DNA of 56,783 nt, filler included, from a bacterium (GCA_040757115.1; 4 parts of 4 records of this genome joined end to end with filler, not necessarily neighbours in it); one strand, 5' to 3'. Numbered from the whole stretch's first letter, positions 14,259 through 48,259 are shown. Program-made: numbers and translations. Notes: a model not told the origin generated them from the letters alone.

Positions 14259-14358
14259 NNNNNNNNNNNNNNNNNNNNNNNNNNNNNNNNNNNNNNNNNN
14301 NNTTAATTAATTAANNNNNNNNNNNNNNNNNNNNNNNNNNNNNNNNNNNNNNNNNNNN
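14259..14358. other. Artificial contig linker
   Basis: 44 N + TTAATTAATTAA (stops in all six frames) + 44 N. Confidence 0.97.
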
Positions 14359-14505: not shown

Positions 14506-14981
14506 GTAACCGTTCAGCCACAGAGGCACAGAGTTCACAGAGAATTAAGGAAAGTAGCCACAAATGGACACGATTAACCTCTGACATCCCATAAATGTAG
14601 GGCGAACCTTATTGCTTTTTCATAAATAGGTTCCTCTTTTGGGGAGAGCGATAGCAAGAAGAACTTTAATGTAAATATCAAAATGCAAATATCAAAATTA
14701 CAATGCAAAATGCAAAAATACTTGTAAATTAACAAAGTAGCTGGAGAATATTTTGATTTTTGATTTGTAATTTTACATTTTGATGTTTGATTTTTAATTT
14801 ATTTTATGGTATTCCAGAAAAGTGGAAGTTAATTTTGCAAAAACCATTAGGTTCGCTTTCCTGCTTGCCAGAAGCGAGGCTAAAGCCTCACACTACAAAT
14901 CTCTTTATTATTTGTTCATTCGTGGTTATATATTCGCTCTGTGTTCTCTGTGACTCTGTGGCTATATCCCTGAACGGTTAC
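14506..14981. mobile_element. GTAAC-ended miniature inverted-repeat element carrying a nested 235-bp MITE
   Basis: Ends GTAACCGTTCAG and CTGAACGGTTAC; inner CACAGAG/CTCTGTG repeats; homologous partial copy at 28405-28552. Confidence 0.8.
14612..14846. mobile_element. 235-bp MITE with TTA target duplication
   Basis: TTA on both sides; same-length reverse copy at 41792-42026; partial copy from 28512; imperfect TIRs TTGCTTTTTCATAAA / TGGTTTTTGCAAAA. Confidence 0.85.
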
Positions 14982-25389: not shown

Positions 25390-25626
25390 TAGAGTTCTGC
25401 AAAACCAGGAAACTGTAGTTTTTAAGCGGGTATTTAACCTCTATTCTTATCAATTTCCTCCAAAGAGCAAAATGCAAAACTCGTTTATAGTTTATGGTTT
25501 ATAGTTTATAGTCCTTCAACTATCAACTATAAACTATCAACTATAAACTATCAACCCTGTTGCTATATATATCTGTTCTATGAGAAATTTTCGTTAATAA
25601 CTACTATATGTATTTAGAGAACGCTA
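25390..25626. repeat. Mosaic intergenic repeat (AACTATA/AACTATC heptamers)
   Basis: 25453-25545 is the reverse complement of ~43300-43407; 25545-25608 matches ~27665-27722; weak TAGxGTTCT terminal inverted repeats. Confidence 0.7.
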
Positions 25627-27524: not shown

Positions 27525-27859
27525 GTAACCGTTCAAGTGGTAATTTACCGCAGAGACGCAGAGGAACAGAGAAGACATATAGTAAGTATTAACCAAAAGT
27601 TCACATTAGTATTGTTGATAGTTGATGGTTGATAATCTATGAAACTATCAACTATAAACTATCAACCATCAACCCTGTTGCTATATCTGTTCTATGAGAA
27701 ATTTTCGTTAATAACTACTATATTAATCTTTTAATACTTACTTTTGACTAACTGTTTTTACGCCTTTTTAAACACCGAAAAACGCGAAAAACACGAAAAA
27801 AAGACATTTTCCTCTCTGTTTCTCTGCTCTCTGCGGTAAAGGATTACCTGAACGGTTAC
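27525..27859. mobile_element. GTAAC-ended inverted-repeat element with a nested TA-bounded ~145-bp element (27578-27722)
   Basis: GTAACCGTTCA...TTTACCGCAGAGA versus TCTCTGCGGTAAA...TGAACGGTTAC; nested ends TATAGTAAGTATTAAC / GTTAATAACTACTATA. Confidence 0.78.
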
Positions 27860-28404: not shown

Positions 28405-28552
28405 GTAACCGTTCAGCCACAGTGGCACAGAGTTCACAGAGAATTAGAGAAATTAGCCACACATGGACACGAATTAACCTGTGACATTCGATAAATGTAG
28501 TGCGAACCTTATTGCTTTTTCATAAATAGGTTCCTCTTTTGGGGAGAGCGAT
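28405..28552. mobile_element. GTAAC-ended element with nested TTA-MITE, cut by contig end
   Basis: Near-identical to 14506-14652. Confidence 0.8.
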
Positions 28553-28652
28553 NNNNNNNNNNNNNNNNNNNNNNNNNNNNNNNNNNNNNNNNNNNNTTAA
28601 TTAATTAANNNNNNNNNNNNNNNNNNNNNNNNNNNNNNNNNNNNNNNNNNNN
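28553..28652. other. Artificial contig linker
   Basis: 44 N + TTAATTAATTAA + 44 N. Confidence 0.97.
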
Positions 28653-30149
28653 TAATAACTTTTTATTCACCAATCGTTGGAGGTATTTACCAATATTACC
28701 AGAGCTGATTCTACTGCCTCTTTCTGAAAGAAGTTGAGTTATTTCCTGTTTCGTCAAGGGTGTTTCTTGAAAGGAAAAGACTTTAAGCACCTCTGCCTCT
28801 CCTTTACTTGCTTCATTAAACCAGTGGTCAAATATCGCTGTTCCTAAATCCACTAAGGTATTCTGTAAGGCCTTCTCCCAAACTGCTAAATCAACTTTAC
28901 CTGCTATCTGAGTCTCATATAGATTTCTGCATAATACCTGCATTTCAAAAGGATGACCATGAGTATAAAGATATACCCTCTCAATTACCTCTGGTGAAAA
29001 GGTAACACCTGTATTCTCAAGGGTCTTTTCTACTGTATAAACTAACTCTTCCTTTGATAGAGGAGGAAGGTTTATCTTGGAAAGAAAATATCTGCCCACA
29101 GGGTGATGTCTCTTTAAGCTAATAAATTCATTCCATTTCTCAGGAAGACAGGTAATTACAAATAATATCTTTGTCTTTTTAACAATGGTTTCATTGCTTA
29201 AAACTTGTTTAATGGTAGTTAAAATCCCTGAGATAGGCTCAAAGTAATGGGCATCATCCAACATTACTACCATTAATTTCCCTTTATTTTTCTTTATATC
29301 TTCCCACAGACTCAAAAGTGTATCATAGAGAAGTCCTTGAGGCTGTAATTTCGATTTAGATAACTCTCGACTATATTGAAATCCAGTACCCACAATAGTA
29401 ACTCCTAAACCTGTAAGCTGCTTAGTGAATGTCTCTAATTTAGAACTTGTAAAGGGTAAATCCCTAAATATTCCCTGGATGATGCATTCAACACCATCTA
29501 AAACAGTACTATCCTTCCCAAACTCATCCAATGGAACTATAGAGGCAATGTATCCTTTCTTTTGAGCTAACATCTTAAACTCTCGCAATAGCATAGTTTT
29601 ACCAATACCCCAATCACCTAAGACTAAGAAATGGTCACAGACAGCCTCCTCAGCCTCCTTAAGTTTATTCTCAAAGAATCTCAACTCCTTAAATCTTCCT
29701 CCAAATACCTTTGGTTCAACACCTGTTTTGGGACAGAAAGGATTTATCTTCTGCACCTTAGTCCTGCTTTCTAAGATGGCATTCTTAATTATCCTTCTAA
29801 GTTCATCATAATCTATAGGCTTATCAATAAAATCATAGACTCCTTCTTTAAATGCTTCTCTGGCTAACTTTGAGGTTCCATAGCCAGTAACCACAATTAT
29901 CTGGGTACTAGGACTACTCTCCAATATCTCCTCCATAACCTCTAATCCACCCATCTCTGAGGGTCTAAGTCCTGGCATCTTTAAGTCTATAATTACCACA
30001 TCATAAGTCCCTCTTTTTATCTTTTTGAATGCCTCGACAACTGTATCAGAGGTATCAGTAAGATAATCTTCCCCTTTTAATTCACGACAATAAATATCTA
30101 ACATATCCCGATTATCTTCAACAATTAGTATCAAAGCCTTATCTGCCAT
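28653..30149 (-). CDS. Response regulator: receiver + P-loop ATPase (AAA_16/STAND-like) + wHTH, 3' end truncated
   Basis: IVED, IDLKMP, VTG and KP receiver motifs; NPF..FGGR, GDWGIGKT, VMLDDAH and THGHPF; start MADK at 30149. Confidence 0.8.
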
Positions 30150-31512
30150 ACTTTTCACTTCCTTTGATTGGTAATTCAACCATAAAAGTAGTTCCTTTAC
30201 CTTCTTCACTCATAACTCTCATAACTCCGCCGTGTCGGTTAACTATTCCTCTGCTAATATATAATCCTAACCCATAACTCTTTCTTTTCGTAGTAAACGA
30301 TAAATCAAATATCTTACTCAAATTATCCTCTGAAATTCCAACTCCTGTATCACTAAATTCGATACATATAAATTTTGCTTCAGGAAAATATTCAATTACT
30401 CTACTTAGAACTTTTAACTTTCCTCCCATTGGCATTGCCTGTATTGCATTATTTATTATATTCATGAATACCTGTTTTAACTGATCTTTATCAGCAAGCA
30501 CTAAAGATAATGACGATTTTAGGGTTTTAGTCAATTTTACATTTGAGGGAACTCGATATTTAATTAATAATAAAACCTCTTTCAGTACTTTATGAACATC
30601 AACTTCAGTAATGTTAGACTTCTCTTGAGAAACTACCTCTAAGAGATTGTTTAATAATATCTTGGAATAGTTAACACTTCGTGTTATTACCCTTATTTCT
30701 TTAGCATTTGGATTATTCTGATCAATGTTAGATGCCAGATAATTTATTGCCTTATCAATAACTTCCAATTCGTTTGTTAAAGTGTGTGCAATTTTATCTG
30801 TTGATTTTCCTAATTTACTTTTGAGCACTCTATGAACATCAATTTCGGCAAAATCTGATTTATCACGAAAGGACAAATCTGAGATATTGCTTAACAATTT
30901 CTTACAATGATTAGCCCTTCGCGCTATTACATCTATTTCTGTAGTATTTGGATTACTCTTCTCAATATTAGATAGCGGATAATTCACTGTGTTATCAATA
31001 ATTTCAAATTCATTCGTCAGATCGTGTATAATCCCAGCTATTACTTCTCCCAATTTAGTCAATTTCGGTAATTTCTTTGAATCAACTTGCTTCTTTTTTC
31101 CAGTAGTCTTGGAATAAACAGGTTGTTTTTTAGAAAGGGTATTTTCTAAAAGAGAATTAACCGTATTTAATATTTGTCTTGGGAAAAAAGGCTTGAATAT
31201 AACTGCTGTTGGTCTAAGTTCTTTTAACTCTTCCTGTTCTTCTCCTAATGCAGTAAGAAAGATAACCGGGATCTTTTGAGTCTGAGGATTTTTTTGTAAT
31301 TCATGGTATACACCAAAACCATCTAATTTAGGCATCATAATATCAGTAATGACTAAATCTGGTCTTTCTGCAAATGCCTTTTGTACTCCTTCTTCCCCAT
31401 CAATAGCTGTGAGAACCTCTAAACCACCACTAGTTAGCCTAGTTAGCTTAGTTTTGATAACCCGTAGAATAACACTATCATCATCTATGACTAAAACTTT
31501 TTTCTTGGGAAT
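30139..31512 (-). CDS. Hybrid histidine kinase: receiver + two tandem HisKA-like domains + HATPase
   Basis: Frame stays open upstream of 31338 (IPKKKVLVIDDD...PDLVITDIMMP) to an ATT 7 nt after GAGGTG; N, G1, F and G2 boxes present. Confidence 0.8.
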   Translation of the reverse strand: MPKKKVLVIDDDSVILRVIKTKLTRLTSGGLEVLTAIDGEEGVQKAFAERPDLVITDIMMPKLDGFGVYHELQKNPQTQKIPVIFLTALGEEQEELKELRPTAVIFKPFFPRQILNTVNSLLENTLSKKQPVYSKTTGKKKQVDSKKLPKLTKLGEVIAGIIHDLTNEFEIIDNTVNYPLSNIEKSNPNTTEIDVIARRANHCKKLLSNISDLSFRDKSDFAEIDVHRVLKSKLGKSTDKIAHTLTNELEVIDKAINYLASNIDQNNPNAKEIRVITRSVNYSKILLNNLLEVVSQEKSNITEVDVHKVLKEVLLLIKYRVPSNVKLTKTLKSSLSLVLADKDQLKQVFMNIINNAIQAMPMGGKLKVLSRVIEYFPEAKFICIEFSDTGVGISEDNLSKIFDLSFTTKRKSYGLGLYISRGIVNRHGGVMRVMSEEGKGTTFMVELPIKGSEKYGR

Positions 31513-31646: not shown

Positions 31647-31930
31647 GCTATCGGGATGCGGATGAGCGAAGTGCCCCGAAAGGGGCATAGGTTCGACAGG
31701 CTCACTACAAGTTTTGGCTTCAGCCCCGACCTGCAAGCGCGACCCACTTCGTGGGTGCCCCGCCGCTGCTGATAGCCAAAGTGACGCAGAGCAACTTCTC
31801 TTTTTCAAAAATTCCCCTTGAGTTACATAAAGCTTCCGCCTTTCGCTCATCCGCATCCCCGACCCACTTCGTGGGTGCCCCGCAAAATGCGAATCCCAAA
31901 GGGGTTCGCGCGAAGCGACATTTTGGTTAT
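31647..31930. repeat. GC-rich multi-hairpin repeat 'E', copy 1
   Basis: GGGATGCGGATGAGCGAA...TTCGCTCATCCGCATCCC; two CGACCCACTTCGTGGGTGCCCCG units; homologous to 41758-42220. Confidence 0.8.
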
Positions 31931-32004
31931 TGTTTTGCGGATAAAAGAAGTTGCCAAAGGCAATTTGAGTGAAGCGAAGCGAAACCTTTTATCCGTTGTT
32001 ATCT
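31930..32004 (-). other. attC site (R' end fused to repeat E)
   Basis: Minus-strand AGATAAC overlaps the HEPN stop; CGGATAAAAG/CTTTTATCCG arms; closely similar to 35734-35819. Confidence 0.75.
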
Positions 32005-32457
32005 GCCGTTTGTGGGCATTTTGCTTTTTTGTCTTCGCTCAATCTCTTTAATTTTTTGTTCCACAAATTCATAAATCTCTGTTGCTATTGCTACAGATTC
32101 ATCTGCCATTTCAGGGGTAAAGTCATATATTGGTAGTTCAGGATACCGTGCTTCATGTTGATAAGGATGGAGAATCAAAGACTTAGACCGTAATCTAAGA
32201 AATTCCTTATCTCCCTGGCCACATAGATCAATCAATGTCCGCAAAGAATGAAGTTCAGGGGCTGATTTGCCCATCGCTTCAAGAAAGGCTTTTAGGCTTT
32301 TTTCTACACATTCACGAGCCTCAAAACATGGCTTATGGTAAAAGTATGTTCTATCTTCCAAACCACTCCTTGCCCATTCAAGGTCACTCTTTGCATAAAA
32401 CAATAATTGCTTGTAGTACTTATCAGGATAACCCGGCTTTATCTCTTTGTTTCTCAT
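31999..32457 (-). CDS. HEPN domain protein (MNT-HEPN pair)
   Basis: CFEARECVEKSLKAFL, HSL and ARYP motifs. Confidence 0.88.
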   Translation of the reverse strand: MRNKEIKPGYPDKYYKQLLFYAKSDLEWARSGLEDRTYFYHKPCFEARECVEKSLKAFLEAMGKSAPELHSLRTLIDLCGQGDKEFLRLRSKSLILHPYQHEARYPELPIYDFTPEMADESVAIATEIYEFVEQKIKEIERRQKSKMPTNGR

Positions 32458-32824
32458 ATAACACTTTCCCTTTATTTATAATCTCTTGTTTCAGAAAGGA
32501 ATTACCACTTTTTATACCCTTTTCTATTTGTTTGGGAGTTCTAACTATTACATCCAGAGCAAAAAACCTTCCAGAAAATAATTCATCAATCTTGCGTTCA
32601 GCTTCTCGTACATTTCTAATCCTTTGTTTAACAATATAGAGGTCTATATCGTGAGAATTTTGCATATTCCTGGCAGCTGAACCAAAAAGGATTATTTTCT
32701 CAGGATTAAAATATTTTACTATCTTATCCCGAATCTCCTCTATAAGTGAAGAAGTAATGGGTTCAAGAATTACCTTTTCTTTCCTTTTCATTGGTTCTGC
32801 TTCATATTTACCCATGGTTTGCAT
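32423..32824 (-). CDS. Minimal nucleotidyltransferase (MNT)
   Basis: ILFGSAAR...DIDL and GKVLYE; overlaps the HEPN gene. Confidence 0.9.
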   Translation of the reverse strand: MQTMGKYEAEPMKRKEKVILEPITSSLIEEIRDKIVKYFNPEKIILFGSAARNMQNSHDIDLYIVKQRIRNVREAERKIDELFSGRFFALDVIVRTPKQIEKGIKSGNSFLKQEIINKGKVLYEKQRDKAGLS

Positions 32825-32848
32825 CCTCTCCTTTTACCCACAATGAGC

Positions 32849-32936
32849 AGATAACGGCTCTAGCATATACGACGTTGCCAAAGGCAATGTCCCGAAGGGC
32901 AAGGGCGAAACCCGCAACGTATATGCTGTGTTAGTC
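32849..32936 (-). other. attC site
   Basis: Minus strand GACTAAC...AGCATATACG...CGTATATGCT...GTTATCT; overlaps the stop of 32931-33731. Confidence 0.82.
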
Positions 32937-33731
32937 GAAGTTTGGCTCATCTTCTTTGATGATATCATAAATATATTTCTTTAAGGTTTCTTTGAGCTTC
33001 TCACAACCTTCAGAGTTGTCAGAATATATTATGTGTCTAAATCGTAGTAGATCGAATGGTATCTCTTTGACATCTTGAGTAATCAGTATTACACGTTTCC
33101 CTAAAGTGTGTGCTATTCCAAGTTCATAAAACACATTTGGATTTTGTCCCGTGATATCTGCAATAATTATTTTGGCCTTAACTATACTTTCATAGATGTC
33201 GATCATTACGTCTTGTCCACATAAGTCATCAGCTCTTTGACAAATTAGAGGGGGTGTCAAATCGAGTCCTGTAACCGAAGGACGAATATGTTTCTTCCAA
33301 ACTCTCTCAGACCAGTTTGTAGAAAATGGCATTAGTACGAATATAAGGTTATTACATTCATCAATTCTTCTTATATGGAAAGGGCACTTTTTCTCTATGT
33401 AATCTCTTTCATGGTATTTAACCTGAGCCAGTTTGATTTCCGATGAAAGAATAATCTCAAGTGCTCCGATTCTCTGTTGAAATACAGTTATCCTTTCACT
33501 TTTGTTTTTGGGAGTATTTCCTTTAAAATATTGGGCGTGATCCCAAATACAATAGGGGGTACCATAAGTAATACAACTTCCAGCAGGATCTAGAGAGTGC
33601 ACATAATTCCCAGTCATTGATTCCCATTTTGAGATTTCGTTTAAGTTAAAAGTGCCAGATTGCAGTAATTGATTTCCTCTTTCCAATTGCTTTTTAAGTT
33701 TCTCTACCAAATCTTGATTCAATTTAATCAT
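32931..33731 (-). CDS. TIR-like / nucleoside 2-deoxyribosyltransferase-like protein
   Basis: FVLMPF, RADD, IADITGQNPNVFYELGIAH and IPFDL motifs. Confidence 0.7.
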   Translation of the reverse strand: MIKLNQDLVEKLKKQLERGNQLLQSGTFNLNEISKWESMTGNYVHSLDPAGSCITYGTPYCIWDHAQYFKGNTPKNKSERITVFQQRIGALEIILSSEIKLAQVKYHERDYIEKKCPFHIRRIDECNNLIFVLMPFSTNWSERVWKKHIRPSVTGLDLTPPLICQRADDLCGQDVMIDIYESIVKAKIIIADITGQNPNVFYELGIAHTLGKRVILITQDVKEIPFDLLRFRHIIYSDNSEGCEKLKETLKKYIYDIIKEDEPNFD

Positions 33732-33982
33732 CGCTTAATCTCGTATAATAGAAATTACCAAATTTCGCCTACCTTATTTATATCCGAACAGGTTCGGATA
33801 TACCCCCAATTTTGACTCTGGCTGAAAAAGCCAAAACACTCCTTCTATTAACTTTTGTCTCCCATCACTTCCCTTTCTTCAGGCTCAAGGTATCCAGTGG
33901 ACTCTTTTATTAAACTGAACTAATAGGAATTTGCTTTTTGGACATTTTGGATGTTAATTTCTCTTTTATTCATTATGGAGAT

Positions 33983-34011
33983 ATTTTACCAAAAATTTTA
34001 TCTTGTCTCAA
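33983..34011 (-). promoter_or_regulatory. Putative promoter facing the downstream cassettes, partly duplicated at 34040-34062
   Basis: TTGAGA-17 bp-TAAAAT with TG; direct repeat GATATT(T/C)TACCAAAAATTTTATCTT. Confidence 0.45.
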
Positions 34012-34056
34012 TAAAAATTTGCTTTTTTAGATCTCAGGGATATTCTACCAAAAATT

Positions 34057-34644
34057 TTATCTTAGGGGTATTGCAACCGCCTTATATTTTTTAAATTTCC
34101 AGCATATGGCTGTTTTGTATGGTTTTTCTACTTGTCTTTTTCTTTTTATATCTTTCTTACCCCCTTCCTTCTTACTGACTACCTCTTTACCCCTCTTTAC
34201 TTCACCCCTTTTTCTATAGGTATTCTTTGTGTCAAGGATTACCCCTCCGATAAGGAAGTATTGCTGTGTCCAGGTTCCGCTGTGTATTTCCCTAACCATC
34301 TCTTTATATAGAAGGTGTCTTTGATGGTGTATCAATGGGTTTTATTGGATAATCTGCTAATGCCAAATTCTGAAGATAGCCCCTATCCTTAAGCCACCTT
34401 GCAATCGCAACAAACTTTGCTATTCTAATAAGCTCTTTGTAAATAGGCACCTCCTTTGCAAATTCTTCATAATTATTTTCAAAGAAAGAGGCAAATTCCT
34501 CTGGTGCTTGATATTTACTTTCACTTTCAACCCCCATTACAATCTTATCAAACATAATGCTTTCTCCTTCCTCTATGAGGACAACCTCTTTTGGCTTAAA
34601 CCAGATTCTGCTGAAATGCCCTATTTTTATATTCTCATCTTTCG
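34057..34644 (-). pseudogene. 5'-truncated, frameshifted gene remnant
   Basis: Frame of 34304-34555 stays open up to the junction near 34644 with no proper start and appears to continue in the overlapping 34057-34335 frame. Confidence 0.5.
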
Positions 34645-34661
34645 GTTAGGTGAAGTCGCTA

Positions 34662-35150
34662 TCATTTTTTCACTGTTTCATATAGACGCTGTGTACCACT
34701 GTCATATTTTATTTCTATTAGTTCATTGCTTAAGCACGTGTGAAAAGAAATAACAACCATTTCTCGTCCTTTCGGGTAAAATTCATGAGTTACACCCTTA
34801 TCTATCACATACCAGCAATCTTCATTTTGCTGGTCGAATAATCTCATCTCCTCGCAACGGCCGGCAATTTTGACCTCTCCCTTCCCTTCGACTATTACCG
34901 TGTGTTGAGTACTATTTGGATGATAATGAGCAATAGAAGGAACATTCTTTTTGTTAACGAATATCCAAATAGATTTGATGTTCTGTGGTAGTCTCTCACG
35001 AAAAGACTCTATTCTTATGGCCCTCCCTATGAATGGTTCATTAGACTTCCGAAGCTGTAATTTGAGATTTTCAATAGTTTCTTTGATTGATGCGTCTTCT
35101 AATAATATTTTAACCACAACACTTAGATCCTTCAAATACTCCTTTTCCAT
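34662..35150 (-). CDS. Cupin-like protein
   Basis: HYHPNSTQH and GVTHEF motifs. Confidence 0.6.
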   Translation of the reverse strand: MEKEYLKDLSVVVKILLEDASIKETIENLKLQLRKSNEPFIGRAIRIESFRERLPQNIKSIWIFVNKKNVPSIAHYHPNSTQHTVIVEGKGEVKIAGRCEEMRLFDQQNEDCWYVIDKGVTHEFYPKGREMVVISFHTCLSNELIEIKYDSGTQRLYETVKK

Positions 35151-35201
35151 AAAGTTTCTCCTAAGAATACGCCTCTTTCAACATAAACATTTGCCAAATC
35201 T

Positions 35202-35654
35202 CTAATCTATAAAATATTTTACAAAGCCAGTTTTAACTCCTTTTTCAAATCCAGCATTACCATAAAATCGTAATGTATTTTCATCTTTTCTACTGGTCAT
35301 AAGCATAACCTTATAACAATTCTTTTCTTTGGCAATTTCAATTGCTCTTTTTAGTATGGCTGTTCCATATCCTTTTTTTCTATAATTCTTATGAGTTACT
35401 ACATTTTCAATTAATGCATAAGGACATGCATTCCTTGTTAAATTTCTTATTATGATTAAATTACATGAGGATATAATTTTTCCATTTTCTTCAATCACTA
35501 AACAAAAATGATTAGGGTCTTCAAATATTTCTTTCCATAGTTTTTTCAATGTCTCATCAATTTCAATCTTGGGATCATTTACATGCAAATGTTTATAAAG
35601 TTCTAATAATTGTTCAATCTCATTAAATTTTATCATTCTCACTTTTTCAATCAT
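35202..35654 (-). CDS. GNAT family N-acetyltransferase
   Basis: IENVVTHKNYRKKGYG, CYKVML and FYxxxGF motifs. Confidence 0.92.
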   Translation of the reverse strand: MIEKVRMIKFNEIEQLLELYKHLHVNDPKIEIDETLKKLWKEIFEDPNHFCLVIEENGKIISSCNLIIIRNLTRNACPYALIENVVTHKNYRKKGYGTAILKRAIEIAKEKNCYKVMLMTSRKDENTLRFYGNAGFEKGVKTGFVKYFID

Positions 35655-35733
35655 ATTTTAAGACCTCAAATTTAGTTAAAGCGATGGGCAAGACAGTAAA
35701 CGTATATTTAATCAAAATTGGACAGGGCATTTC

Positions 35734-35819
35734 ACCTAACGTTCTGCGGATAAAAGAAGTTGCCCAAGGCAATTTGGGCGAAGGTGCGAAGCACCGTAGC
35801 CTTTTATCCGCTGTTAGGC
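35734..35819 (-). other. attC site
   Basis: Minus strand GCCTAAC-AGCGGATAAAAG...CTTTTATCCGCAGAAC-GTTAGGT. Confidence 0.85.
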
Positions 35820-35834
35820 GATAGTGCAATACCA

Positions 35835-35936
35835 TTAGAGATACCTCCTTACTTTTTTCATATAATCCTTATATTCTTTGCCATACTGTTCTATTAAAAA
35901 CTCTCTTTCATCTCTTTCCACATCGTAATAAGTATA
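35835..35936 (-). pseudogene. 3' remnant of an isoprenylcysteine carboxyl methyltransferase-family gene
   Basis: Manual translation YTYYDVERDEREFLIEQYGKEYKDYMKKVRRYL*, just before an attC, with an in-frame stop upstream. Confidence 0.55.
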
Positions 35937-35970
35937 TCATAAGGCAAGGTAAAAGCTATCAATTTTTTTC

Positions 35971-37299
35971 TCACCACCCTTTTTCGGATAACAGCCATTG
36001 CCATAGTGGTAAAAATCTAATTTTTTTACCCTCTATCTTTTCTTCAAATTCATCATCTTCAGTAATAACCAGGCCTTCTTTAAGACCAAATTCCTCCATT
36101 GCCTTAATGAGTGCCTTGATTTCTCTCTGCTTAGTCTTCTCATCGTAGACATTGGAGCAAACCTGAATAAGTTGCTTTGTCTTTAGTTTTTCTTTCAAAA
36201 CAAAATCTACTTCTCTGTGAAATTGGTCTTTCCAGTAAAAGATTTCTAACTCTGGTGTTTCTCTTATTTTTTCTTTTAATTTTAAGTAAGTTATATTCTC
36301 TAATAATCTGCCTGAATTTTCGCTCGTCCTGAAACCTATCATATTTGCTAACCCTGTATCTATGCAGTAGACTTTTTTGGGACTTTTATCCTGTTCCTTT
36401 ACCTTAAAAGAAAACCTCTTCAAAAAAAATAAAATATAGGCATCTTCAAAATAAGTAGAGAATTTTTCTATTGTATCAGCAGAGAGATTTAAATATTTTT
36501 CAATAGAGTTAAAGGTTATCAAATTTGATATGTTGGTGAGGTAATATTTGGCTAAACTTTTTATGGCTTCTTTTTTTCTTATATTGAATCTCTTTATCAG
36601 GTCTTTATTTAACACATCCTCATAATACCTTAGTAATATATCCTTTTTTTGTTGGTGTAAAACAACCTCCGGAAATGAGCCAAATTCAATATATTTCCTT
36701 AACAAAGCTTTGATTTCGTTCTGTTTGTTTATCATCTCAAGTTTATCTTTTAATTGCAGATTGTTAAAAAGCAAATGTTCTCTAAAGGAAAGTGGATATA
36801 CAGTCATATCAAGGTGCATTCCGGTCAATAAGCTGGAAAGTTCACGACTTAATAATTTTGCGTTTGAACCGGAAATAACAATTTTTGCCTTTTGTAATTC
36901 TCGTGTGGTTCTAACCCATTTTTCCCATCCAGTAACCTCCTGAACCTCATCAAGAAAGATATAGGGCTTCCCTTTTGGACTCAAAAACTCTAAATATGTT
37001 TCATAAATCCTTTGCAGGACTTCTACATCCAATTGAGTAAATCTGGGGTCTTCAAAATTTATGATGAGAATTTCATTCTTATTGACCCCACTACTTACTA
37101 ATCTTTTAGCCACCTGCCTCATAATGAATGATTTGCCACTTCTTCTTGCACCGGTTATGACCGTAATAAGCCCAGTATTTAAAAATTCTATTAACTTATT
37201 GACATAAGAATCTCTGTTAATGCCGGTTTCTATATCCTTTTCCCAGAAGTTCCAATCAGAAAGGATTCGGACAATCTCGTTTTTCTTCATTATTTTCAC
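35971..37299 (-). CDS. ATP-binding protein (AAA_14 + DUF4143)
   Basis: GARRSGKS, FLDEVQ, SGSN, GSFPE, KVYCIDTG and EVDF; own promoter TTGACA-17-TATACT at 37363-37335. Confidence 0.9.
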   Translation of the reverse strand: MKIMKKNEIVRILSDWNFWEKDIETGINRDSYVNKLIEFLNTGLITVITGARRSGKSFIMRQVAKRLVSSGVNKNEILIINFEDPRFTQLDVEVLQRIYETYLEFLSPKGKPYIFLDEVQEVTGWEKWVRTTRELQKAKIVISGSNAKLLSRELSSLLTGMHLDMTVYPLSFREHLLFNNLQLKDKLEMINKQNEIKALLRKYIEFGSFPEVVLHQQKKDILLRYYEDVLNKDLIKRFNIRKKEAIKSLAKYYLTNISNLITFNSIEKYLNLSADTIEKFSTYFEDAYILFFLKRFSFKVKEQDKSPKKVYCIDTGLANMIGFRTSENSGRLLENITYLKLKEKIRETPELEIFYWKDQFHREVDFVLKEKLKTKQLIQVCSNVYDEKTKQREIKALIKAMEEFGLKEGLVITEDDEFEEKIEGKKIRFLPLWQWLLSEKGW

Positions 37300-37451
37300 C
37301 TTTATTAGTCAAAATTTACAAATTTTACCTAATAAGTATACAAAAATTTGGTAAAGATGTCAACTAAAACTTTTCCGATTAGCAACCAATGAGCCAGGGC
37401 AAGGTTGCAAAGCAATCGCAAAGTTCTTAAACCCCGCCTATCAAAAAAATA

Positions 37452-38648
37452 TTATTTCAGCCATTGTTGCATAGCATTTTTATAGCTTTGTGAATATCCC
37501 GTATGAGCTGTACACAGTATAGAAATATTTTCAAGTTCTGCTAATTTCTTAATAGATTCCTTCTGTGTTTCAGTATCTATATTATGAAAAGGACTGAAAA
37601 TCTCAACTTTTCCGTCTTTTAATGTTAGTGTATCTCCACTACAAAGAATCTTATCGTTGATTAAGTAAGCCATATGTCCAGGAGTATGTCCTGGTGTAGC
37701 AATCGCCTCGACTTTAATTTTCCCAACATTAACTACATCTTTATCTTTAAGAAGATTATATTTTTTGTATATCTTTACAGGATTGTGTGCGAAAAACAAT
37801 CTGGCCGTAGTTCCATTAATCATTTGTTCTTCTTCTTTGCCTATATATAATTTCGCACCTTTGAATAAATCAAACTTGCCAAAAAAATCGACCCCGCCAG
37901 CATGATCTGGATCAGCATGGGTTAGAAACAAATGAGTAATTGAATCAGGATCAATATTTATCTTTCTAAACTCATTTCTAAGATCATCATATTTATATCC
38001 TGCATCAATACAAATGGTATTTTCTCTATCTGAATAGATAAATAGATTAGCATCTCTATCTTTGATAACATATAGACCCTCAGTTAGTTTTCCTGTTTCT
38101 ACAGGATACCACGTCTTACTTGGTAATGATGCAATCCAGACAAACAACTCTGCGATTGCAAATTCTATTCTAGGAAAAAGGCAAGGGACTTCCTTTTTAT
38201 AGTGCAAATAATCCTGGCCAAATTTTCTCTCCAAATATTTTTCCTCTTTAACTATGAGAATTCTAAATACAAGGTACATAAAGAGAGGAATTGAAATCCC
38301 TAATAAAGAACCAAAAATTAGAACTATTCCTGGAACAATAAAGACTATCCACGCTGCATATATTGGGTGTCGGAAGAAAGAGTATATTCCACTTTTATAT
38401 AATTTTCCTTCATAAAAATATTTATCAATTGTAAACGCAGGTATCAAAAAGATAGGAACTCCCAAAATGAGAAGGATAATGCCTAATATAACATTTACAG
38501 ATCCAGATATTACCTCAAATGTAAGTGAAGGGTAATAAACAAAATGCAAAATAAAAATTATAATTCCATAAATAACCGATATTAGAGCGAATTTGGGTCC
38601 AACTCCCCATTTTGTCATTTCCTTGTTCATAGATGAATAACCTTTCAT
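37452..38648 (-). CDS. Fusion of an ICMT/PEMT-like membrane methyltransferase and an MBL-fold hydrolase
   Basis: GIYSFFRHPIY and EEKYLERKFG then THADPDHAGG, TPGHTPGH, GD and TAH. Confidence 0.82.
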   Translation of the reverse strand: MKGYSSMNKEMTKWGVGPKFALISVIYGIIIFILHFVYYPSLTFEVISGSVNVILGIILLILGVPIFLIPAFTIDKYFYEGKLYKSGIYSFFRHPIYAAWIVFIVPGIVLIFGSLLGISIPLFMYLVFRILIVKEEKYLERKFGQDYLHYKKEVPCLFPRIEFAIAELFVWIASLPSKTWYPVETGKLTEGLYVIKDRDANLFIYSDRENTICIDAGYKYDDLRNEFRKINIDPDSITHLFLTHADPDHAGGVDFFGKFDLFKGAKLYIGKEEEQMINGTTARLFFAHNPVKIYKKYNLLKDKDVVNVGKIKVEAIATPGHTPGHMAYLINDKILCSGDTLTLKDGKVEIFSPFHNIDTETQKESIKKLAELENISILCTAHTGYSQSYKNAMQQWLK

Positions 38649-38673
38649 ATTTTTTAGGTTGAATTCATACTTT

Positions 38674-39333
38674 TTATTTCTTTAGCCATATTTCCAAATC
38701 AATAGGATTTTCTTTGACTTGGCATGTCTTAAATTTAGTTTTAGACACAAGTTCTATAATTTCTTCTTTATTATAGGAATCCTTTATCGAGTGCTTAAGC
38801 CCCCATCTCATAATGAATGAATCAATCTTTTCTAAGAGTTTACTTATCTCTTCTCTAGAAATATCTTTTCTTAAGTCACATATCAGAGCTCTTCCTTTGC
38901 TATTAAGTATTCTGCATGCTTCATTAAATACCTTAATAGGTTTTTTCCAATGATGAAGAGAACCACTACTAACTACAAAATCAAAAGTGTTATCCTCAAA
39001 TGGCATATTTGATGCATCTCCCAGTTCAAATTTAAGTTCTGCACCAGCATCTTTTGCGTTCCTTTTTGCGATCTCTATCATTGTTTCACTAATATCCAAT
39101 CCTATTATTTGGAAAGCACCAAGTTTTGAAAGCTCTATTGATATATAGCCTGGACCGGGTCCTATCTCAAGGACTTTTCCGTTTTTAAGCTGCTCAGTAA
39201 CGCTGCATGCAATTCTTTTATATTCATCCATTAATACTTTCTTTGCAAATTTATCATACTTTTCTGCAAACCAGCCTTCGATTCCACCTTTTGAGGTAAA
39301 CTGCTTTATTGTTCTGAATAAGTTTCTTGTCAT
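38674..39333 (-). CDS. Class I SAM-dependent methyltransferase
   Basis: VLEIGPGPG, GLDIS, GDASNMPFEDNTFD and SLHHW motifs. Confidence 0.92.
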   Translation of the reverse strand: MTRNLFRTIKQFTSKGGIEGWFAEKYDKFAKKVLMDEYKRIACSVTEQLKNGKVLEIGPGPGYISIELSKLGAFQIIGLDISETMIEIAKRNAKDAGAELKFELGDASNMPFEDNTFDFVVSSGSLHHWKKPIKVFNEACRILNSKGRALICDLRKDISREEISKLLEKIDSFIMRWGLKHSIKDSYNKEEIIELVSKTKFKTCQVKENPIDLEIWLKK

Positions 39334-39377
39334 CTTATCGTCTCTATACCTATTATTAATGTGGGGTTCGGAATTTC

Positions 39378-39441
39378 ATCTAACGACTGAGCTCACCTGT
39401 CCGCCTTAGTTAGGCGGGTCAGGTGCAGCGATTGGTTAGAC
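39378..39441 (-). other. attC site (64 bp, canonical)
   Basis: Minus strand GTCTAAC-CAATCGCTGCACCTGACC...CAGGTGAGCTCAGTC-GTTAGAT; overlaps the MBL gene stop. Confidence 0.9.
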
Positions 39442-40113
39442 AAATAGCTCCCTTATTAATTTTGCACCCTTCTCCAAGATTGCTTGACCATGACCAACAC
39501 AAATAATGTCTATCTCAATATCTCTTAATTTCTTCACCGATTCAGAGAGCTCATGGTCATCAATATTATAGAACCCTTGACAAACCGCTAATTTGCCTTC
39601 ATTGATTAGACTATCCCCTGAGAATAAGACTTTTCTATCGGGTTGATATAATGCCATGCTTCCAGGAGTATGTCCAGGAGTATGAATGACTTGCAACCCA
39701 CCAAATATCTCTAATATATCACCATCGTCGACAGTTTTATCAACCCGAATGCCTTTTATCGCGAATAAAGTATTGAGTATCCCCCAGCCAACTCTTTTTC
39801 CAAAAGATGAATATTGAAGTTTTGCTGTTTGTTCAATATACGGCTTTTCGGCTTCATGAGCAATAAGGGTAGCATGTGAGATGTCTTGTATTTTTTTGAC
39901 ATTTGCTGTGTGATCACTATGACAATGGGTTAAAATGATATAGTTGATATCTTCAATTTGAAAACCTTGCTGTTTCATCTGTGAGGCAATTTTTTTATAA
40001 TCTCCCATCATTCCTGTATCAATAAGGGCAACTCCATTGTTCTCTACTATCAGATAACATTGCCCACTTTTTAATTCGTCAAATTGATAAACATCTTGTG
40101 TAATTTTATGCAT
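39436..40113 (-). CDS. MBL-fold metallo-hydrolase (cassette gene)
   Basis: IDTG, THCHSDH, HTPGHTPGS, SGD and VGHG motifs. Confidence 0.92.
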   Translation of the reverse strand: MHKITQDVYQFDELKSGQCYLIVENNGVALIDTGMMGDYKKIASQMKQQGFQIEDINYIILTHCHSDHTANVKKIQDISHATLIAHEAEKPYIEQTAKLQYSSFGKRVGWGILNTLFAIKGIRVDKTVDDGDILEIFGGLQVIHTPGHTPGSMALYQPDRKVLFSGDSLINEGKLAVCQGFYNIDDHELSESVKKLRDIEIDIICVGHGQAILEKGAKLIRELFV

Positions 40114-40152
40114 AAAGTTTTTCTCCTTTTATTCTATCATTTTGCCGTTGTT

Positions 40153-40284
40153 GTTTAACGATAAAGTTCAGGTGCGGCAGGGAGAATTACCACAAAAGTT
40201 TGATAGCAAGATAAAACTTTGAGAGAACACAAAACTCTGACCACGGCACAATCCCCCGCCCTCAACTGCAACGCAGGGTTAGAC
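40153..40284 (-). other. attC site (132 bp)
   Basis: Minus strand GTCTAAC-CCTGCGTTGCAGTTGA...CACCTGAACTTTATC-GTTAAAC. Confidence 0.8.
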
Positions 40285-40391
40285 AAAAGCTTTGATTCGC
40301 TGTCTTTTCCTTTTCCTCTGCCTCACCGAATTATTGTGCATTCCACATTCACGGTTTGACCCTCATATCTCCCCACCGACTTGACCTAAAT

Positions 40392-41222
40392 TTAAATTAT
40401 CCCTTGCACATCCATTTTTGTTATCTCATAATTTGCAACCAACAACTCTTTCCCTTTTTGTGCTGTCTGTTGTTTATAATTGTTCATCCCGTATTGCAAT
40501 TCCCACTCAACCTGATAAAAGTCTTTAAACAATGCTCGGATATATTCGTTATTATCATAGGTTATTAACCATTTATGCTTTAATTGTTTGAGATTTTCAA
40601 AAAATACTTCGTGATTAAAATCTACATGAAGATACCCATTTTTTCCATATAATCTTGACTGTGTAGTTGAATAATATGGTGGATCCAAAAAAATAAATAC
40701 ACCTTTACCTTCTTTACCTAATAGGTCAGTATAGTCTTTTGGGCTGAATTCTATGTGTTTGATAACCTCATAAGCATGTTTTAATCGTTGGATAGAAGAT
40801 ATTGTAAAGCGTTTTTGAAATGCCTGTTCTGAATATCCTCCACTATCCACAACACCGGAAAATGTAATTCTGTTTAGCACAAAAAAATCAACTGCTCGCT
40901 GAAAATCTGATAACGGCTGTTTTCGTTTGGCAACAAGTTCCTGAAATAATTCTTTTCCATTAACATATCCTTGCCTCACCCTAAGAATTTCTCTGATTAA
41001 CTCATCCTTGTTCGATTGTAATTCCTTCCAGAAACAATACAAATCATAGTTTATATCACTTGCATAATACTTGGCATACGGATTTTTCTGAACACAGTAA
41101 AACGAAAATGACCCTCCTCCAAAAAATGGTTCTCGGAATTCCTCATATTGAGGAATAAATCTGTAAAGATAGCCTACTGCCCTGGATTTTCCACCTGGAT
41201 AACGTAAAGGACTTTTAATCAT
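40392..41222 (-). CDS. DNA adenine methyltransferase (Dam/D12 class)
   Basis: PLRYPGGKS, EPFFGGGS and FLDPPY; start MIKSP at 41222. Confidence 0.92.
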   Translation of the reverse strand: MIKSPLRYPGGKSRAVGYLYRFIPQYEEFREPFFGGGSFSFYCVQKNPYAKYYASDINYDLYCFWKELQSNKDELIREILRVRQGYVNGKELFQELVAKRKQPLSDFQRAVDFFVLNRITFSGVVDSGGYSEQAFQKRFTISSIQRLKHAYEVIKHIEFSPKDYTDLLGKEGKGVFIFLDPPYYSTTQSRLYGKNGYLHVDFNHEVFFENLKQLKHKWLITYDNNEYIRALFKDFYQVEWELQYGMNNYKQQTAQKGKELLVANYEITKMDVQGII

Positions 41223-41390
41223 CTTTGTTTCCCTCACCGTATTCGATTATGACCTCAAAGTTGTTTGCTCTTGCTTCTTTGAAGAGAGCGTTAATAAATT
41301 CTTCTTTGTTTTTCCTGAAGCAATTTTGCTGGAAGAATGTTGTAATTTCATTTTCATATTTTATGGACTCTAATCTTTTCTTGTGTCCAT
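41215..41390 (-). pseudogene. Startless C-terminal gene remnant coupled to the methyltransferase (possible restriction endonuclease)
   Basis: Manual translation GHKKRLESIKYENEITTFF...EYGEGNKDD*; stop overlaps the methyltransferase start. Confidence 0.45.
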
Positions 41391-41656
41391 TTGAATCGTT
41401 TTCCTAATTCTAATGCTGAAATAATTTGTAACGCTTTCGTGGTTCCAATTCCAGGGAATTCGCTTAATTGTTCTATAGAAATTGAATTATTTAGATTTGT
41501 GCGAATATATTCAACTAGTTCTTTGCTTAAATCAAAGACATTTTTTTCCTTGGAACCATGCCCCAAAATAATAGCAATCAAATCTTCAGTAGTTATTTGA
41601 GCAGGATTTTTAATCTCAAGCAATTTTTCCCTTGGTCTTTTAGATTCATTATTCAT
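41354..41656 (-). pseudogene. radC: RadC N-terminal fragment (JAB domain missing)
   Basis: RPREKL, LIAIILGHG and GIGTTKALQIISALELGKR, then premature stop. Confidence 0.8.
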
Positions 41657-41757
41657 CCCTTAATTCCTCAATAACCTTCATTTTTATTCGGACAACGACC
41701 ATTTTTATTTTTTCCTCGGTTTTTTCCTTATCCATTTTCTTTCTGCTTGCAATTGCA

Positions 41758-42220
41758 ACTAGCGGGATGTGGATGAGCGAAGTGCCCCTTATGGTTTTTG
41801 CAAAATTAACTTCCACTTTTCTGGAATACCATAAAATAAATTAAAAATCAAACATCAAAATGTAAAATTACAAATCAAAAATCAAAATATTCTCCAGCTA
41901 CTTTGTTAATTTACAAGTATTTTTGCATTTTGCATTGTAATTTTGATATTTGCATTTTGATATTTACATTAAAGTTCTTCTTGCTATCGCTCTCCCCAAA
42001 AGAGGAACCTATTTATGAAAAAGCAATTAGGGGCATTTGGGTTTCAGCCCCGACCCGCAAGCGCGACCCACTTCGTGGGTGCCCCGCCGCCGCTGATAGC
42101 CGAAGTAACGCAGAGCCACTTCCCTTTTTCAAAAAATCCCCTTTGAGTTACATAAAGCTTCCGCCTTTCGTTCATCCGCATCCCGATAACCAAAATGGAG
42201 CGAAGCGACATTTTGGTTAT
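41758..42220. repeat. GC-rich multi-hairpin repeat 'E', copy 2, interrupted by the TTA-MITE
   Basis: Aligns with 31647-31930; ends in hairpin CGATAACCAAAATG...CATTTTGGTTATCG. Confidence 0.8.
41792..42026. mobile_element. 235-bp MITE with TTA target duplication (reverse copy)
   Basis: GTGCCCC-TTA-[element]-TTA-GGGGCAT. Confidence 0.85.
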
Positions 42221-42295
42221 CGTTCTGATGAAAAAGAAGTTTTGCGAAGCAAAATTTGGACGAAGTGAAACGAAGTCTTTTACATCGTGTTATAC
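42219..42295 (-). other. attC site (R' end fused to repeat E)
   Basis: Minus strand GTATAAC-ACGATGTAAAAGA...TCTTTTTCATCAGAAC-GATAACC; same family as 35734-35819. Confidence 0.72.
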
Positions 42296-42312: not shown

Positions 42313-42690
42313 TTACCATATAATCTTTACCCCAATCTCATTTAGAGATTTATCCCGACTTATTAGAGGAAGATCTAAATGCATCGAGGTAGCAACTATT
42401 AATCTATCCCAAGGATCTGCAACTATCTCTCTTGGGATCATTCTACTTTTCCTAATTATTGGTAAACATATTGGTTCTATCTGATAATTTCTTGAAGAAG
42501 ATATCATCATAAGAAGGTCGTCAAATTTAACGGTAATCTTTTTCTTTTCAATAAGATAAAGCAACTCAAAGAAGAAAATACATGGAATGACAATATTTTC
42601 TTCACTCAAAATTCTTCTTGCCTCTTGAGAAAGTTTAGGATTATCCGTCATATGCCATATTAAAGTGTGGGTATCAGTAACATATTTCAT
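42313..42690 (-). CDS. PIN-domain (VapC) toxin
   Basis: MKYVTDTHTLIW, DPWDRLIVAT and LISRD; a probable antitoxin C-terminus overlaps its start at 42674-42765. Confidence 0.9.
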   Translation of the reverse strand: MKYVTDTHTLIWHMTDNPKLSQEARRILSEENIVIPCIFFFELLYLIEKKKITVKFDDLLMMISSSRNYQIEPICLPIIRKSRMIPREIVADPWDRLIVATSMHLDLPLISRDKSLNEIGVKIIW

Positions 42691-42765
42691 TACCATTCTC
42701 CCCATTTCTCTTCAAGTTTTTTTAGTAATTCATGACGTGTTTCTTTAATATCTTTCTCTGTAATA

Positions 42766-42865
42766 NNNNNNNNNNNNNNNNNNNNNNNNNNNNNNNNNNN
42801 NNNNNNNNNTTAATTAATTAANNNNNNNNNNNNNNNNNNNNNNNNNNNNNNNNNNNNNNNNNNNN
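42766..42865. other. Artificial contig linker
   Basis: 44 N + TTAATTAATTAA + 44 N. Confidence 0.97.
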
Positions 42866-43127
42866 GTAACACGTTCTCCTTTAGAGAGTAACAATATGAT
42901 CTTATATCGTAGAGAGATACGAAGTTCTGTTTTCCTTTTAGACAGAACAGCTTGTATAGTTTTGAGAACTTCTTCTGATAAATCAAATGAATTTGGTTTT
43001 GGACCACGTGGATATCTTTTTTGCATAATTCTTTCCTCCTTAAAATTTCTATGCCCACGTGGAATTATCGTCATTTTATCAGCAAAACTTTAGAAAAAAC
43101 TGTGAAAAAATTTACTTAACACAGTAC
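42866..43127 (-). mobile_element. IS630-family insertion sequence end with transposase N-terminus (ATG 43026)
   Basis: MQKRYPRGPKP...LRYKIILLLSKG HTH pattern, AGGAGG RBS; boundary at the TA of a CTAG inside a MITE. Confidence 0.65.
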
Positions 43128-43466
43128 TAGCATAAAGGTTAAAATAGTGTATAGGGTTCTGCAAAATAGGATTTGGGGGAGACAACAAATAAATATCAAA
43201 TATAAATATCAAAATGCAAAATTACAAATCAAATTTCAAAAAGGACTTCAAGTATTTTAACGCTGAAAGGAAAGAGATAATTTTACTGAACTTTGGCAAA
43301 GATAGTTTATAGTTGATAGTAGATAGTTGAAGAACTATAGACTATAAACTATAAACCATAAACTATAAACTATAAACGAGTTTTGCATTTTGCTCTTTGG
43401 AGGAAATCCCTTTTGGACACCAAATCTGCATAGATTTCACTATTAGAGTTATTTTGAGACACCACC
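43128..43466. mobile_element. GGTGGTGTCT-type MITE, left end displaced by the IS630-like element
   Basis: Homologous to 47919-48259; right end AGACACCACC. Confidence 0.8.
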
Positions 43467-47903: not shown

Positions 47904-48259
47904 GGTGGTGTCTTAATCTAGCATAAAGGTTAAAATAGTGTATAGGATCCTGCAAAATAGGATTTGAGAGAGACAATAAATAAATATCAAATATCAAATA
48001 TTAAATATCAAACATAAATATCAAAATGCAAAATTACAAATCAAATTTCAAAGAGGAAGTAGCAGGGTTTCTCAAAGAGTTGGAGGAATTTGGTAATATC
48101 TTTGCTTCAAGTATTTTAACGCTGAAAGGAAAGAGATAATTTTACATTTTGATATGTAATTTTTATATTTGCTTTTTGCATTTTGCTCTTTGGAGGAAAT
48201 CCCTTTTGGACACCAAATCTGCATAGATTTCACTATTAGAGTTATTTTCAGACACCACC
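47904..48259. mobile_element. 356-bp MITE with IS1/IS1595-like ends and an 8-bp target duplication
   Basis: TIR GGTGGTGTCT/AGACACCACC; CGAATTCC at 47896-47903 and 48260-48267. Confidence 0.88.

Follow-up and report, generated by a model that had tools for sequence, protein, structure and literature searches.

A hairpin-rich element at attC crossover points in bacterial cassette arrays is probably an integron cassette without an open reading frame

The DNA analyzed here (GCA_040757115.1; 56,783 nucleotides (nt) including filler, hereafter the window) consists of four concatenated contigs separated by N...TTAATTAATTAA...N linkers at 14259-14358, 28553-28652 and 42766-42865. The contig spanning 28653-42765 carries an array of integron gene cassettes in which two copies of a short, GC-rich, hairpin-forming element, referred to here as E, directly abut attC recombination sites. 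Between ~32 and 42.7 kilobases (kb) every gene lies on the minus strand, which is the direction of the cassettes, and the gene content (HEPN plus nucleotidyltransferase, GNAT, cupin, AAA_14/DUF4143, MBL-fold proteins, methyltransferases, Dam and PIN) is typical of cassettes. Imperfect attC-type palindromes part these genes, and the low-coordinate end of the array adjoins non-cassette genes for a histidine kinase and a response regulator (28605-31338). Because the window joins separate contigs, genes flanking a linker, such as PIN (42313-42705) and a small open reading frame (ORF; 42814-43074), are not demonstrated neighbors. No tyrosine recombinase was found in the window, and no integrase on the array contig, which ends at 42765.

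Intact, E-free attC sites of the array (all array features are given on the minus strand, unless stated otherwise) are located at 35819-35734 (GCCTAAC ... CAGAAC GTTAGGT, ending ...CCGCAGAAC GTTAGGT), 32936-32849 (GACTAAC ... GTTATCT) and 39441-39377 (GTCTAAC ... GTTAGAT). A covariance model, R1, was built from 10 E-free attCs only (alignment A1, which includes the site at 35734-35819). TAAC and GTTA are invariant in 10/10 of these sites, and their L''/L' stem covaries, with both-side changes in 6/9 pairs. By eye only, a long attC-like site was also recognized after the Dam methylase cassette (40284-40153, GTCTAAC ... CGTTAAAC), at which R1 had no match. A strict attC census demanding top-strand R-box pairing returned 5 sites only.

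The attC of the PIN-domain cassette (42295-42221, R'' GTATAAC at 42295-42289) ends ...CATCAGAAC G (CAGAAC-G), and its last base, G 42221, is followed by the copy E2, which continues as ATAACCAAAATG... with ATAACC from 42220. The attC of the HEPN/nucleotidyltransferase cassette (32004-31931, R'' AGATAAC at 32004-31998) ends ...CCGCAAAAC A (CAAAAC-A), and A 31931 abuts the copy E1, which has the same start, ATAACC from 31930. Both junctions are as the original prediction had described them. R1 recognized each site, at 34.0 bits (E 1.9e-5, 42215-42295, a non-training site) before E2 and at 58.4 bits (E 2.5e-11, 31925-32004) before E1. E-free relatives of the first site occur on contig C187 of the related genome G012, and those of the second at 35734-35819 in the window and at two further loci (L024 7264-7343; L064 2075-2155). 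Within the window, neither the first 21 nt of E nor its 18-nt inverted repeat is found anywhere but at these two places, with shuffle expectations of 0.00 and 0.02.

Junctions of this kind were collected from the genomes G001, G003, G012 and G020, five public contigs of metagenome-assembled genomes (MAGs) and one metagenome contig, giving 22 distinct loci (window, 2; G001, 6; G003, 2; G012, 4; G020, 3; other public MAG contigs, 4; metagenome contig, 1); a 23rd junction (L063), near-identical to the E2 locus, was left out. G001 is the nearest genome compared, with 29% of sampled words common to the window, and its 15-kb contig C579, in opposite orientation, carries four further copies with a different attC before each. 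A different attC precedes E at each of the 22 loci, and all of them join ATA(A/G)CC at the crossover base, as had been proposed from the two window copies. The base before ATA is G in 19/22 and A in 3/22, the first six bases of E are ATAACC in 17 and ATAGCC in 5 loci, and the first base past the crossover is A in every one. E sits in sense orientation at the 3' crossover throughout (22/22). Because the upstream attCs differ, the two window junctions do not derive from one duplication, a possibility that the original prediction had raised against itself. The upstream sites have the properties of attCs, with an imperfect R''...R' palindrome, a covarying L''/L' stem and a position 3' of co-oriented ORFs, and a script searching for boxes plus a hairpin recovered 19/23 of them (rows including the L063 duplicate). 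By manual count, E follows ~4 of the 9-10 attCs on C579 and 2 of the ~7 in the window array.

At its right end E reads ...TTCGCTCATCCGCATCCC (...CATCCC) and is then followed by an R' core. This core is a normal GTTA(G/T) in 10/12 complete copies (GTTAGAT, GTTATAC, GTTAGTT, GTTAGCC, GTTATAG, GTTATCT, GTTAGCT and GTTATAT were seen), often with GAAAT behind it, as is likewise found after E-free attCs. The two window copies have point-mutated downstream cores. GCTAGTT (41763-41757) after E2 marks the start of the radC-like/Dam cassette and reads GTTAGTT in the G001 orthologue, and the degenerate GATAGCA (31652-31646) after E1 is followed by GAAAT as at other cassette starts. Both ends of E thus coincide with the integrase crossover, the left one in 22/22 loci and the right one in 10/12 complete copies, as is characteristic of a cassette. 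The attCs ending at E are not truncated sites: a normal R' follows E and matched empty attCs exist.

Neither window copy contains an ORF. E2 (42220-41763, 458 nt including the terminal G) starts with ATAACC (42220-42215), followed by a 23-nt hairpin cargo, an outer R''-like box GGTTATC (42191-42185), an inverted-repeat arm (42184-42167), an inner R''-like box GGCTATC (42101-42095) and an L'-like arm (41781-41764) before the final G (41763). E1 (31930-31652, 279 nt including the terminal G; repeat families D7, D10, D18 and D19), the last unit of the array, has the same start (31930-31925) and a hairpin cargo, then a hairpin resembling repetitive extragenic palindromic (REP) sequences in place of the outer R'' GGTTATC (~31883-31861), the inverted-repeat arm (31859-31842), the inner GGCTATC (31777-31771) and the L'-like arm (31670-31653) before the final G (31652). 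Across loci E ranges from 44 nt (L068, L029) to 700 nt (G001:C552), with both ends always kept: the constant parts are 12 nt on the left and ~18-21 nt on the right, and it is the interior that varies. The REP-like hairpin, GGGGCACCCAC-N4-GTGGGTCG, occurs inside E and also on its own elsewhere in related genomes. Its sites include 31861-31883 and 31741-31763 in the window, L054 (~560-620) and many contig ends of G019, and the stem changes among its variants look compensatory by eye. Nested inside E2 is an AT-rich repeat (~41790-42029, strand not given; repeat families D2, D12, D14 and D20), which looks like a second small mobile element. The E copy of C552 has this same insertion at the same position, with a further ~240-nt insertion inside. 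The AT-rich repeat (CAAAATGCAAAT... tracts and a conserved ...AATAGGTTCCTCTTTTGGGGAGAGCGAT end) is also present at ~14573-14790, 28473-28552, 43127-43260 and 47918-48060 in the window. The nested insertion, the R' core after E and the concatenated nature of the window had not been part of the original prediction.

The 3' part of E resembles an attC. A repeat search of the window paired the end of E with attC starts (family D10), and in a MAFFT alignment three compact E copies matched four attCs of type a along the entire length of their 3' 74 nt, sharing the R'' box, a one-base spacer, the GCGGAT... arm, CCAAA(A/T)TGCC, the ...CTTC..(T/C)ATCCGCA arm, a spacer and R'. R1, although built from E-free sites, matched these 74 nt over its full model length in both copies on L067 (1521-1594, 36.4 bits, E 5.1e-6; 3740-3813, 34.2 bits, E 1.7e-5). 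Together with the whole-length alignment, these matches indicate that E carries a 3' attC of its own. The attC consensus is RYYYAAC for R'' and GTTRRRY for R'. In E, GGTTATC stands directly before an 18-nt arm exactly complementary to the last 18 bases, and the inner GGCTATC occupies the site homologous to R'' in type-a attCs. ATAACC is complementary to GGTTAT of the outer box and ATAGCC to GGCTAT of the inner box, so that the start of E matches R'' boxes within E itself. When the end of E was joined to its first six bases and the resulting circular permutation folded, the R-box heptamers paired at 6-7 of 7 positions on both strands in 5/5 copies with an outer box, and at 7/7 in E2. The inner box is present in 7 copies; its bottom-strand R box pairs at 7/7 positions in 5 and at none in the two window copies. 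Compared to E-free attCs, the core of E is flipped at one base pair on both sides (R'' TAAC to TATC, R' GTT to GAT). The 5' mini-hairpin was also considered as the attC of E, with a crossover at G↓TTATC (the arrow marks the exchange point), and such a permutation was found in 0/22 copies.

Following this reasoning, we consider it probable that E is an ORF-less integron gene cassette, composed of ATA(A/G)CC, a hairpin-only cargo and its own attC, which would be moved by the integrase and whose variants would have arisen by later insertions and deletions. The odd start ATA(A/G)CC is explained because the six bases after the crossover belong to the cassette's own R' and complement its own R''; ATAACC is, on this reading, the remnant of E's own variant R' core. 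The attC of E would comprise the R''-like GGCTATC or GGTTATC, an L''/L' stem (GCGGATGA.../...TCATCCGC), the spacer ATCCC and the final G, beyond which the TTAGnn of the next cassette would begin. Since E is then itself a cassette with its own attC, the fusion of attC and E at the crossover is an ordinary cassette boundary. Of the two original readings, that of a non-coding element targeting attC sites comes closer, although it does not extend to E being a cassette with its own attC.

E has several properties of a mobile unit. In six attC subfamilies, sites with E were found alongside sites without it, the presence of E between ...C-G and TTA being their only difference, and in G001 such a pair is found within one genome (L024 3144, empty; L002 1602, filled). 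The subfamily of the window attC at 32849-32936, for example, is E-filled on G001:C579 (1053) and L067 (1385). No remnant of E was seen in the empty attCs of the subfamilies compared. The copies E2 and C552 share the nested insertion and are identical across their shared aligned blocks; similarity extends from ATAACC to just past CATCCCG, and the attC upstream and the cassette downstream are unrelated. Judging from these sequences, one E copy appears to have moved as a unit, with its nested passenger, between unrelated attCs. This bears on the explanation that E belongs to the upstream attC, which would have grown as host hairpin repeats were inserted one after another between the L' arm and the R' core. 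Such growth would account for the REP-like hairpins and their compensatory variants, which occur inside E and also alone elsewhere in related genomes. It is nevertheless the least probable explanation considered here, as 22 different attCs are followed by the same ends in the same order, a complete second attC lies within E, E and its passenger are common to unrelated attCs, and both ends persist in the 44-nt forms.

E is also confined to arrays. The 17-nt inverted-repeat core, searched with up to 2 mismatches in five genomes, gave 20 matches, 18 of them on E-bearing contigs (the remaining two each have 2 mismatches, and a reversed control pattern gave 0 matches), and all 15 matches of the 13-nt left end in the same number of genomes lie on E-bearing contigs. 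Copy numbers are 1-6 per genome, all in arrays, which also disposes of the concern that E might occur mostly without an attC. BLAST with whole E found it in 5/24 genomes of the phylum and 6/40 relatives, two of the latter (G019 and G023) matching only the short REP-like hairpin. Three copies stand at an array edge beside non-cassette genes, namely E1, one next to ilvN (G003:C281) and one behind an MBL-fold gene without a recognizable attC upstream (G020:C185).

The original prediction had favored E as a dispersed docking site for cassettes, that is, a resident site like attI or attG at which cassettes land through a G↓AT secondary site. The crossover at G↓AT does agree with known integrase behavior: the available text of PMC2811028 reports that IntI1 needs only the first nucleotide to be identical and that a T2-to-A2 change is tolerated, with increased recombination, and the available part of a preprint (10.1101/2022.09.11.507474) describes non-classical attG genomic sites that keep GWT, a consensus that G↓AT fits. 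The three copies at array edges are also what a docking site would predict, and the attC of E could in principle receive cassettes. With the motif matches on array contigs, however, E is not dispersed; it lies between cassettes with a canonical R' behind it, empty attCs carry no remnant of it, and it has moved whole between attCs. Nothing E-like was found beside the integrase fragments, and we regard a resident docking site as very unlikely. An attI origin was examined directly and rejected, as the sequences flanking six integrase-bearing loci (in G001, G003 and G012) do not resemble E. Among the integrase-like loci, G003:C250 is Xer-like and lacks the IntI-specific segment, and no clean attI was found in the region upstream of the C220 integrase fragment.

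A further alternative is that E is a miniature non-autonomous element, comparable to a miniature inverted-repeat transposable element (MITE), a REP doublet forming hairpins (REPIN) or a palindrome-associated transposable element (PATE), inserted before R' by an enzyme other than IntI that recognizes the folded attC. Only the two ends of E are constant around an interior of 44 to 700 nt, and an 18-bp inverted repeat is carried. When the attC, E and R' of one C579 copy (L024 12990-13365) were folded as single-stranded DNA, the structure was far more stable than those of shuffled sequences (z = -10.7 and -10.4 for the two strands), and the upstream R'' paired with the R' beyond E in a nested topology. 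Classes of elements that target attC are known, namely group IIC-attC introns and IS1111-attC insertion sequences (as described in the available portions of PMC3001079 and PMC11187229), and genes of the Y1, IS110 and IS91 types are present in these genomes. Against such an origin, E lacks a target duplication and has no inverted repeats at its outermost ends, and the 18-bp inverted repeat is explained as the L'' and L' arms of an attC homologous to the local attCs. According to the available text of PMC3001079, elements known to target attC enter it close to its 5' end and in antisense, and E occupies the 3' crossover in sense. A search for an autonomous parent among Y1 (PF01797), IS110 (PF01548) and IS91 (PF04986) genes of five E-bearing genomes returned 19 transposase loci (12 Y1, 4 IS110 and 3 IS91-type); 0/19 share sequence with E and none is on a contig with E motifs. 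Overall, a miniature transposable element appears unlikely.

For E as a cassette, the integron integrase would be the parsimonious enzyme. Two IntI fragments of G001 matched TIGR02249, C745 with 214.9 bits (positions 181-315) and C611 with 208.1 bits (positions 143-313; 95.3 for the best Xer model, XerC). Both cover the IntI-specific region and remain below the full-length cut-off of 265, as the contigs end there. Another IntI fragment was found in G012, and all fragments are cut by contig ends. The absence of an IntI-like recombinase, which the original prediction had named as grounds for its own rejection, therefore does not apply to the nearest genome. E would be excised and inserted like other cassettes, by bottom-strand exchange after G. 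Recombination between a GAT and a GTT site after this G would yield attC...G↓ATAACC on one side and ...CATCCC G↓TTAGnn on the other, which are the junctions observed. In the excised circle the site of E would still pair, and the integrated form would be bordered by hybrid sites, G↓AT on its upstream side and G↓TT on its downstream side. The size variants, from 44 to 700 nt and including the two swollen window copies, may have arisen from later insertions of REP-like hairpins and AT-rich sequence and from internal deletions.

Frameshifted C-terminal IntI-like fragments in cassette orientation were also noticed within arrays (L024 14447-14790, on G001:C579; L005 ~855-1127, on G001:C81). The fragments belong to decayed cassettes, from a few hundred bases up to 1 kb downstream of the E copies, to which they are not joined, and a link between these fragments and E was discarded.

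Several observations weigh against E as an integrase-mobilized cassette. In every copy that keeps a box, the core is TATC and G↓ATA, and the canonical GTT/AAC is found in none. The outer GGTTATC box is absent from E1, two further C579 copies (C579-2 and C579-3), C552, C81 and the G012 copies, some of which also lack the inner box; such box-less copies would be immobile or would have moved only with neighboring cassettes. R1 detected an internal attC neither in the window copies nor in other complete copies except the two on L067; in the copies without a match, the inner site is broken up by inserted hairpins or missing. The outer stem forms a perfect 25-bp duplex and has none of the bulged bases that serve strand choice in canonical attCs. 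Upstream of E, R1 recognized the attC at 13/22 loci at E<=1 and at 10/22 at E<=0.05, and one locus (L029 1492) has no recognizable attC. The integrase evidence consists of fragments at contig ends in the nearest genome, not in the window's own genome. The published tolerance of GAT concerns IntI1 and not the enzyme of this lineage. Finally, no circular E or excision joint was seen in the run contigs, which are assembled contigs and not reads.

In these assemblies (Logan contigs), the joints involving E connect repeats, either E copies with one another or with other E variants, and the contig depth of the E region, summed over all organisms, is ~8x that of its flanks. In run X2, a contig with a depth of 2 carries the attC that precedes E1, and this attC continues without E into a canonical GTTAGGC core and a further cassette. 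A relative may have an E-free allele, but the hint is weak and was not counted as evidence.

The frame from the ATG shared by the 22 copies spans 13-101 amino acids with unrelated tails and has no match in Pfam; a small protein was therefore ruled out and E was classed as non-coding. Rfam returned nothing across the whole window at gathering thresholds and chance-level matches only across E1 (best E 0.49), and no tRNAs were found in the window. A role as promoter or terminator was rejected since a scan of sigma-70 type revealed no site common to the two E copies scanned. One speculative extension, doubtful as it stands, is that E is a selfish, cargo-free mini-cassette, an attC copying itself through arrays, which acts as a parasite or regulator of the integron and is a naturally occurring instance of altered integrase site specificity. 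The flipped GAT/ATC pair would then change recombination kinetics, and each insertion would create two hybrid sites with a mismatched R box, possibly poor substrates for re-excision. As a result, E would accumulate (~40% of the attCs on one 15-kb contig) and lock or re-partition neighboring cassettes.

Other features of the arrays were recorded alongside E. A very short palindromic site at an attC position (TATATCCGAAC-NN-GTTCGGATATA, then AAACAA GTTATG...) is E-filled in L065 (~380-400) and empty in L024 (~560-610) and in the window (33804-33766). Several unrelated cassettes begin alike behind the R' core, with the leader GTTATCTGCTCATTG(T/C)GG... and, after it, an AGGAG resembling a ribosome-binding site (window 32855-32838; L024 ~14856; L002 ~150; L073 ~1700). 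In run X1 the summed contig depth over 40002-40375 is ~71,000, compared to ~300 in the flanks, which means that the long attC-like spacer behind the Dam cassette includes a sequence of extreme abundance in this community. A motif connected with this spacer, GGGTCA(A/G)ACC.TGAAT.T.GAA, is found repeatedly at breakpoints in L005 and L066. Elsewhere in the window, tandem heptamers (AACTATA or AACTATC and their complement) occupy intergenic positions at 25460-25570, 27643-27686 and 43282-43390. Another intergenic repeat family starts with GTAACCGTTCAG and continues with short repeats of the CACAGAG/GCAGAGA type, with copies at 14506, 27525, 28405, 45861, 50947, 52657, 52720 and 56536 and inverted copies at 51370 and 52817.

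If E is indeed a cassette, uncultivated groundwater bacteria carry a natural attC family that is propagated with a GAT instead of a GTT core, a behavior so far reported for engineered IntI1 substrates and non-classical genomic sites. E would then be a natural test case for the strictness of the cleavage triplet and of R-box pairing, for attC as a selfish element with almost no cargo, and for the effect of hybrid sites on cassette excision. In practice, attC finders that demand GTT/AAC miss the boundary of E and merge it with its neighbors, leading to mis-delimited cassettes.

Searches of the literature (supplementary files lay outside them) turned up neither an attC family with a GAT core nor a miniature element positioned at the attC crossover, and E was compared with known systems that share some of its features. 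MITEs of DDE transposons have terminal inverted repeats and are flanked by a target-site duplication; the two ends of E (ATAACC.../...CATCCC) are unrelated, and at most one ambiguous G is common to its flanks. Like REP sequences, bacterial interspersed mosaic elements (BIMEs) and REPINs, E is GC-rich and built of modular, stable hairpins with stem changes that look compensatory by eye, and some of its loops read GCGAAGC, which forms an exceptionally stable DNA mini-hairpin. In contrast to REP sequences and REPINs mobilized by REP-associated tyrosine transposases (RAYTs), it is not dispersed between genes, remains at 1-6 copies per genome within arrays, and shares no sequence with the 12 Y1 loci. 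E resembles group IIC-attC introns and IS1111-attC elements (ISPa21, ISPst6, ISKpn4) in being repeated, attC-specific and of fixed orientation. These elements are often located at array ends (by citation), and they encode a reverse transcriptase or a DEDD transposase and occupy the 5' end of attC in antisense (available text of PMC3001079), whereas E is non-coding, 44-700 nt long and positioned in sense exactly at the 3' crossover. The IS110-type loci of the relatives share no sequence with it.

The closest parallels lie within integrons. As in non-canonical integrase sites (secondary sites and attG), the crossover of E follows a G and precedes AT; those sites are lab mutants or double-stranded genomic sites, whereas the GAT of E is natural, folded, compensated in R'' and propagated. 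The array itself is similar to clusters of attC sites lacking integron-integrases (CALINs) and to the arrays of sedentary chromosomal integrons, with co-oriented cassettes at 32-43 kb (toxin-antitoxin, methyltransferase and GNAT genes) and no integrase on a contig that ends at 42765, beyond which an integrase may lie. ORF-less cassettes have a classical attC at their 3' end, and some encode regulatory RNAs or promoters, according to the available text of PMC8876359. E shares with them the lack of a conserved ORF, crossover-bounded ends, a 3' attC and a place in co-oriented arrays. It differs from them in that several copies occur per array, no promoter-like site is common to the two copies scanned, the core triplet is GAT/ATC instead of GTT/AAC in all 22 copies, and the cargo can consist of as little as 23 nt together with the attC's own 3' arm copied in inverted orientation.

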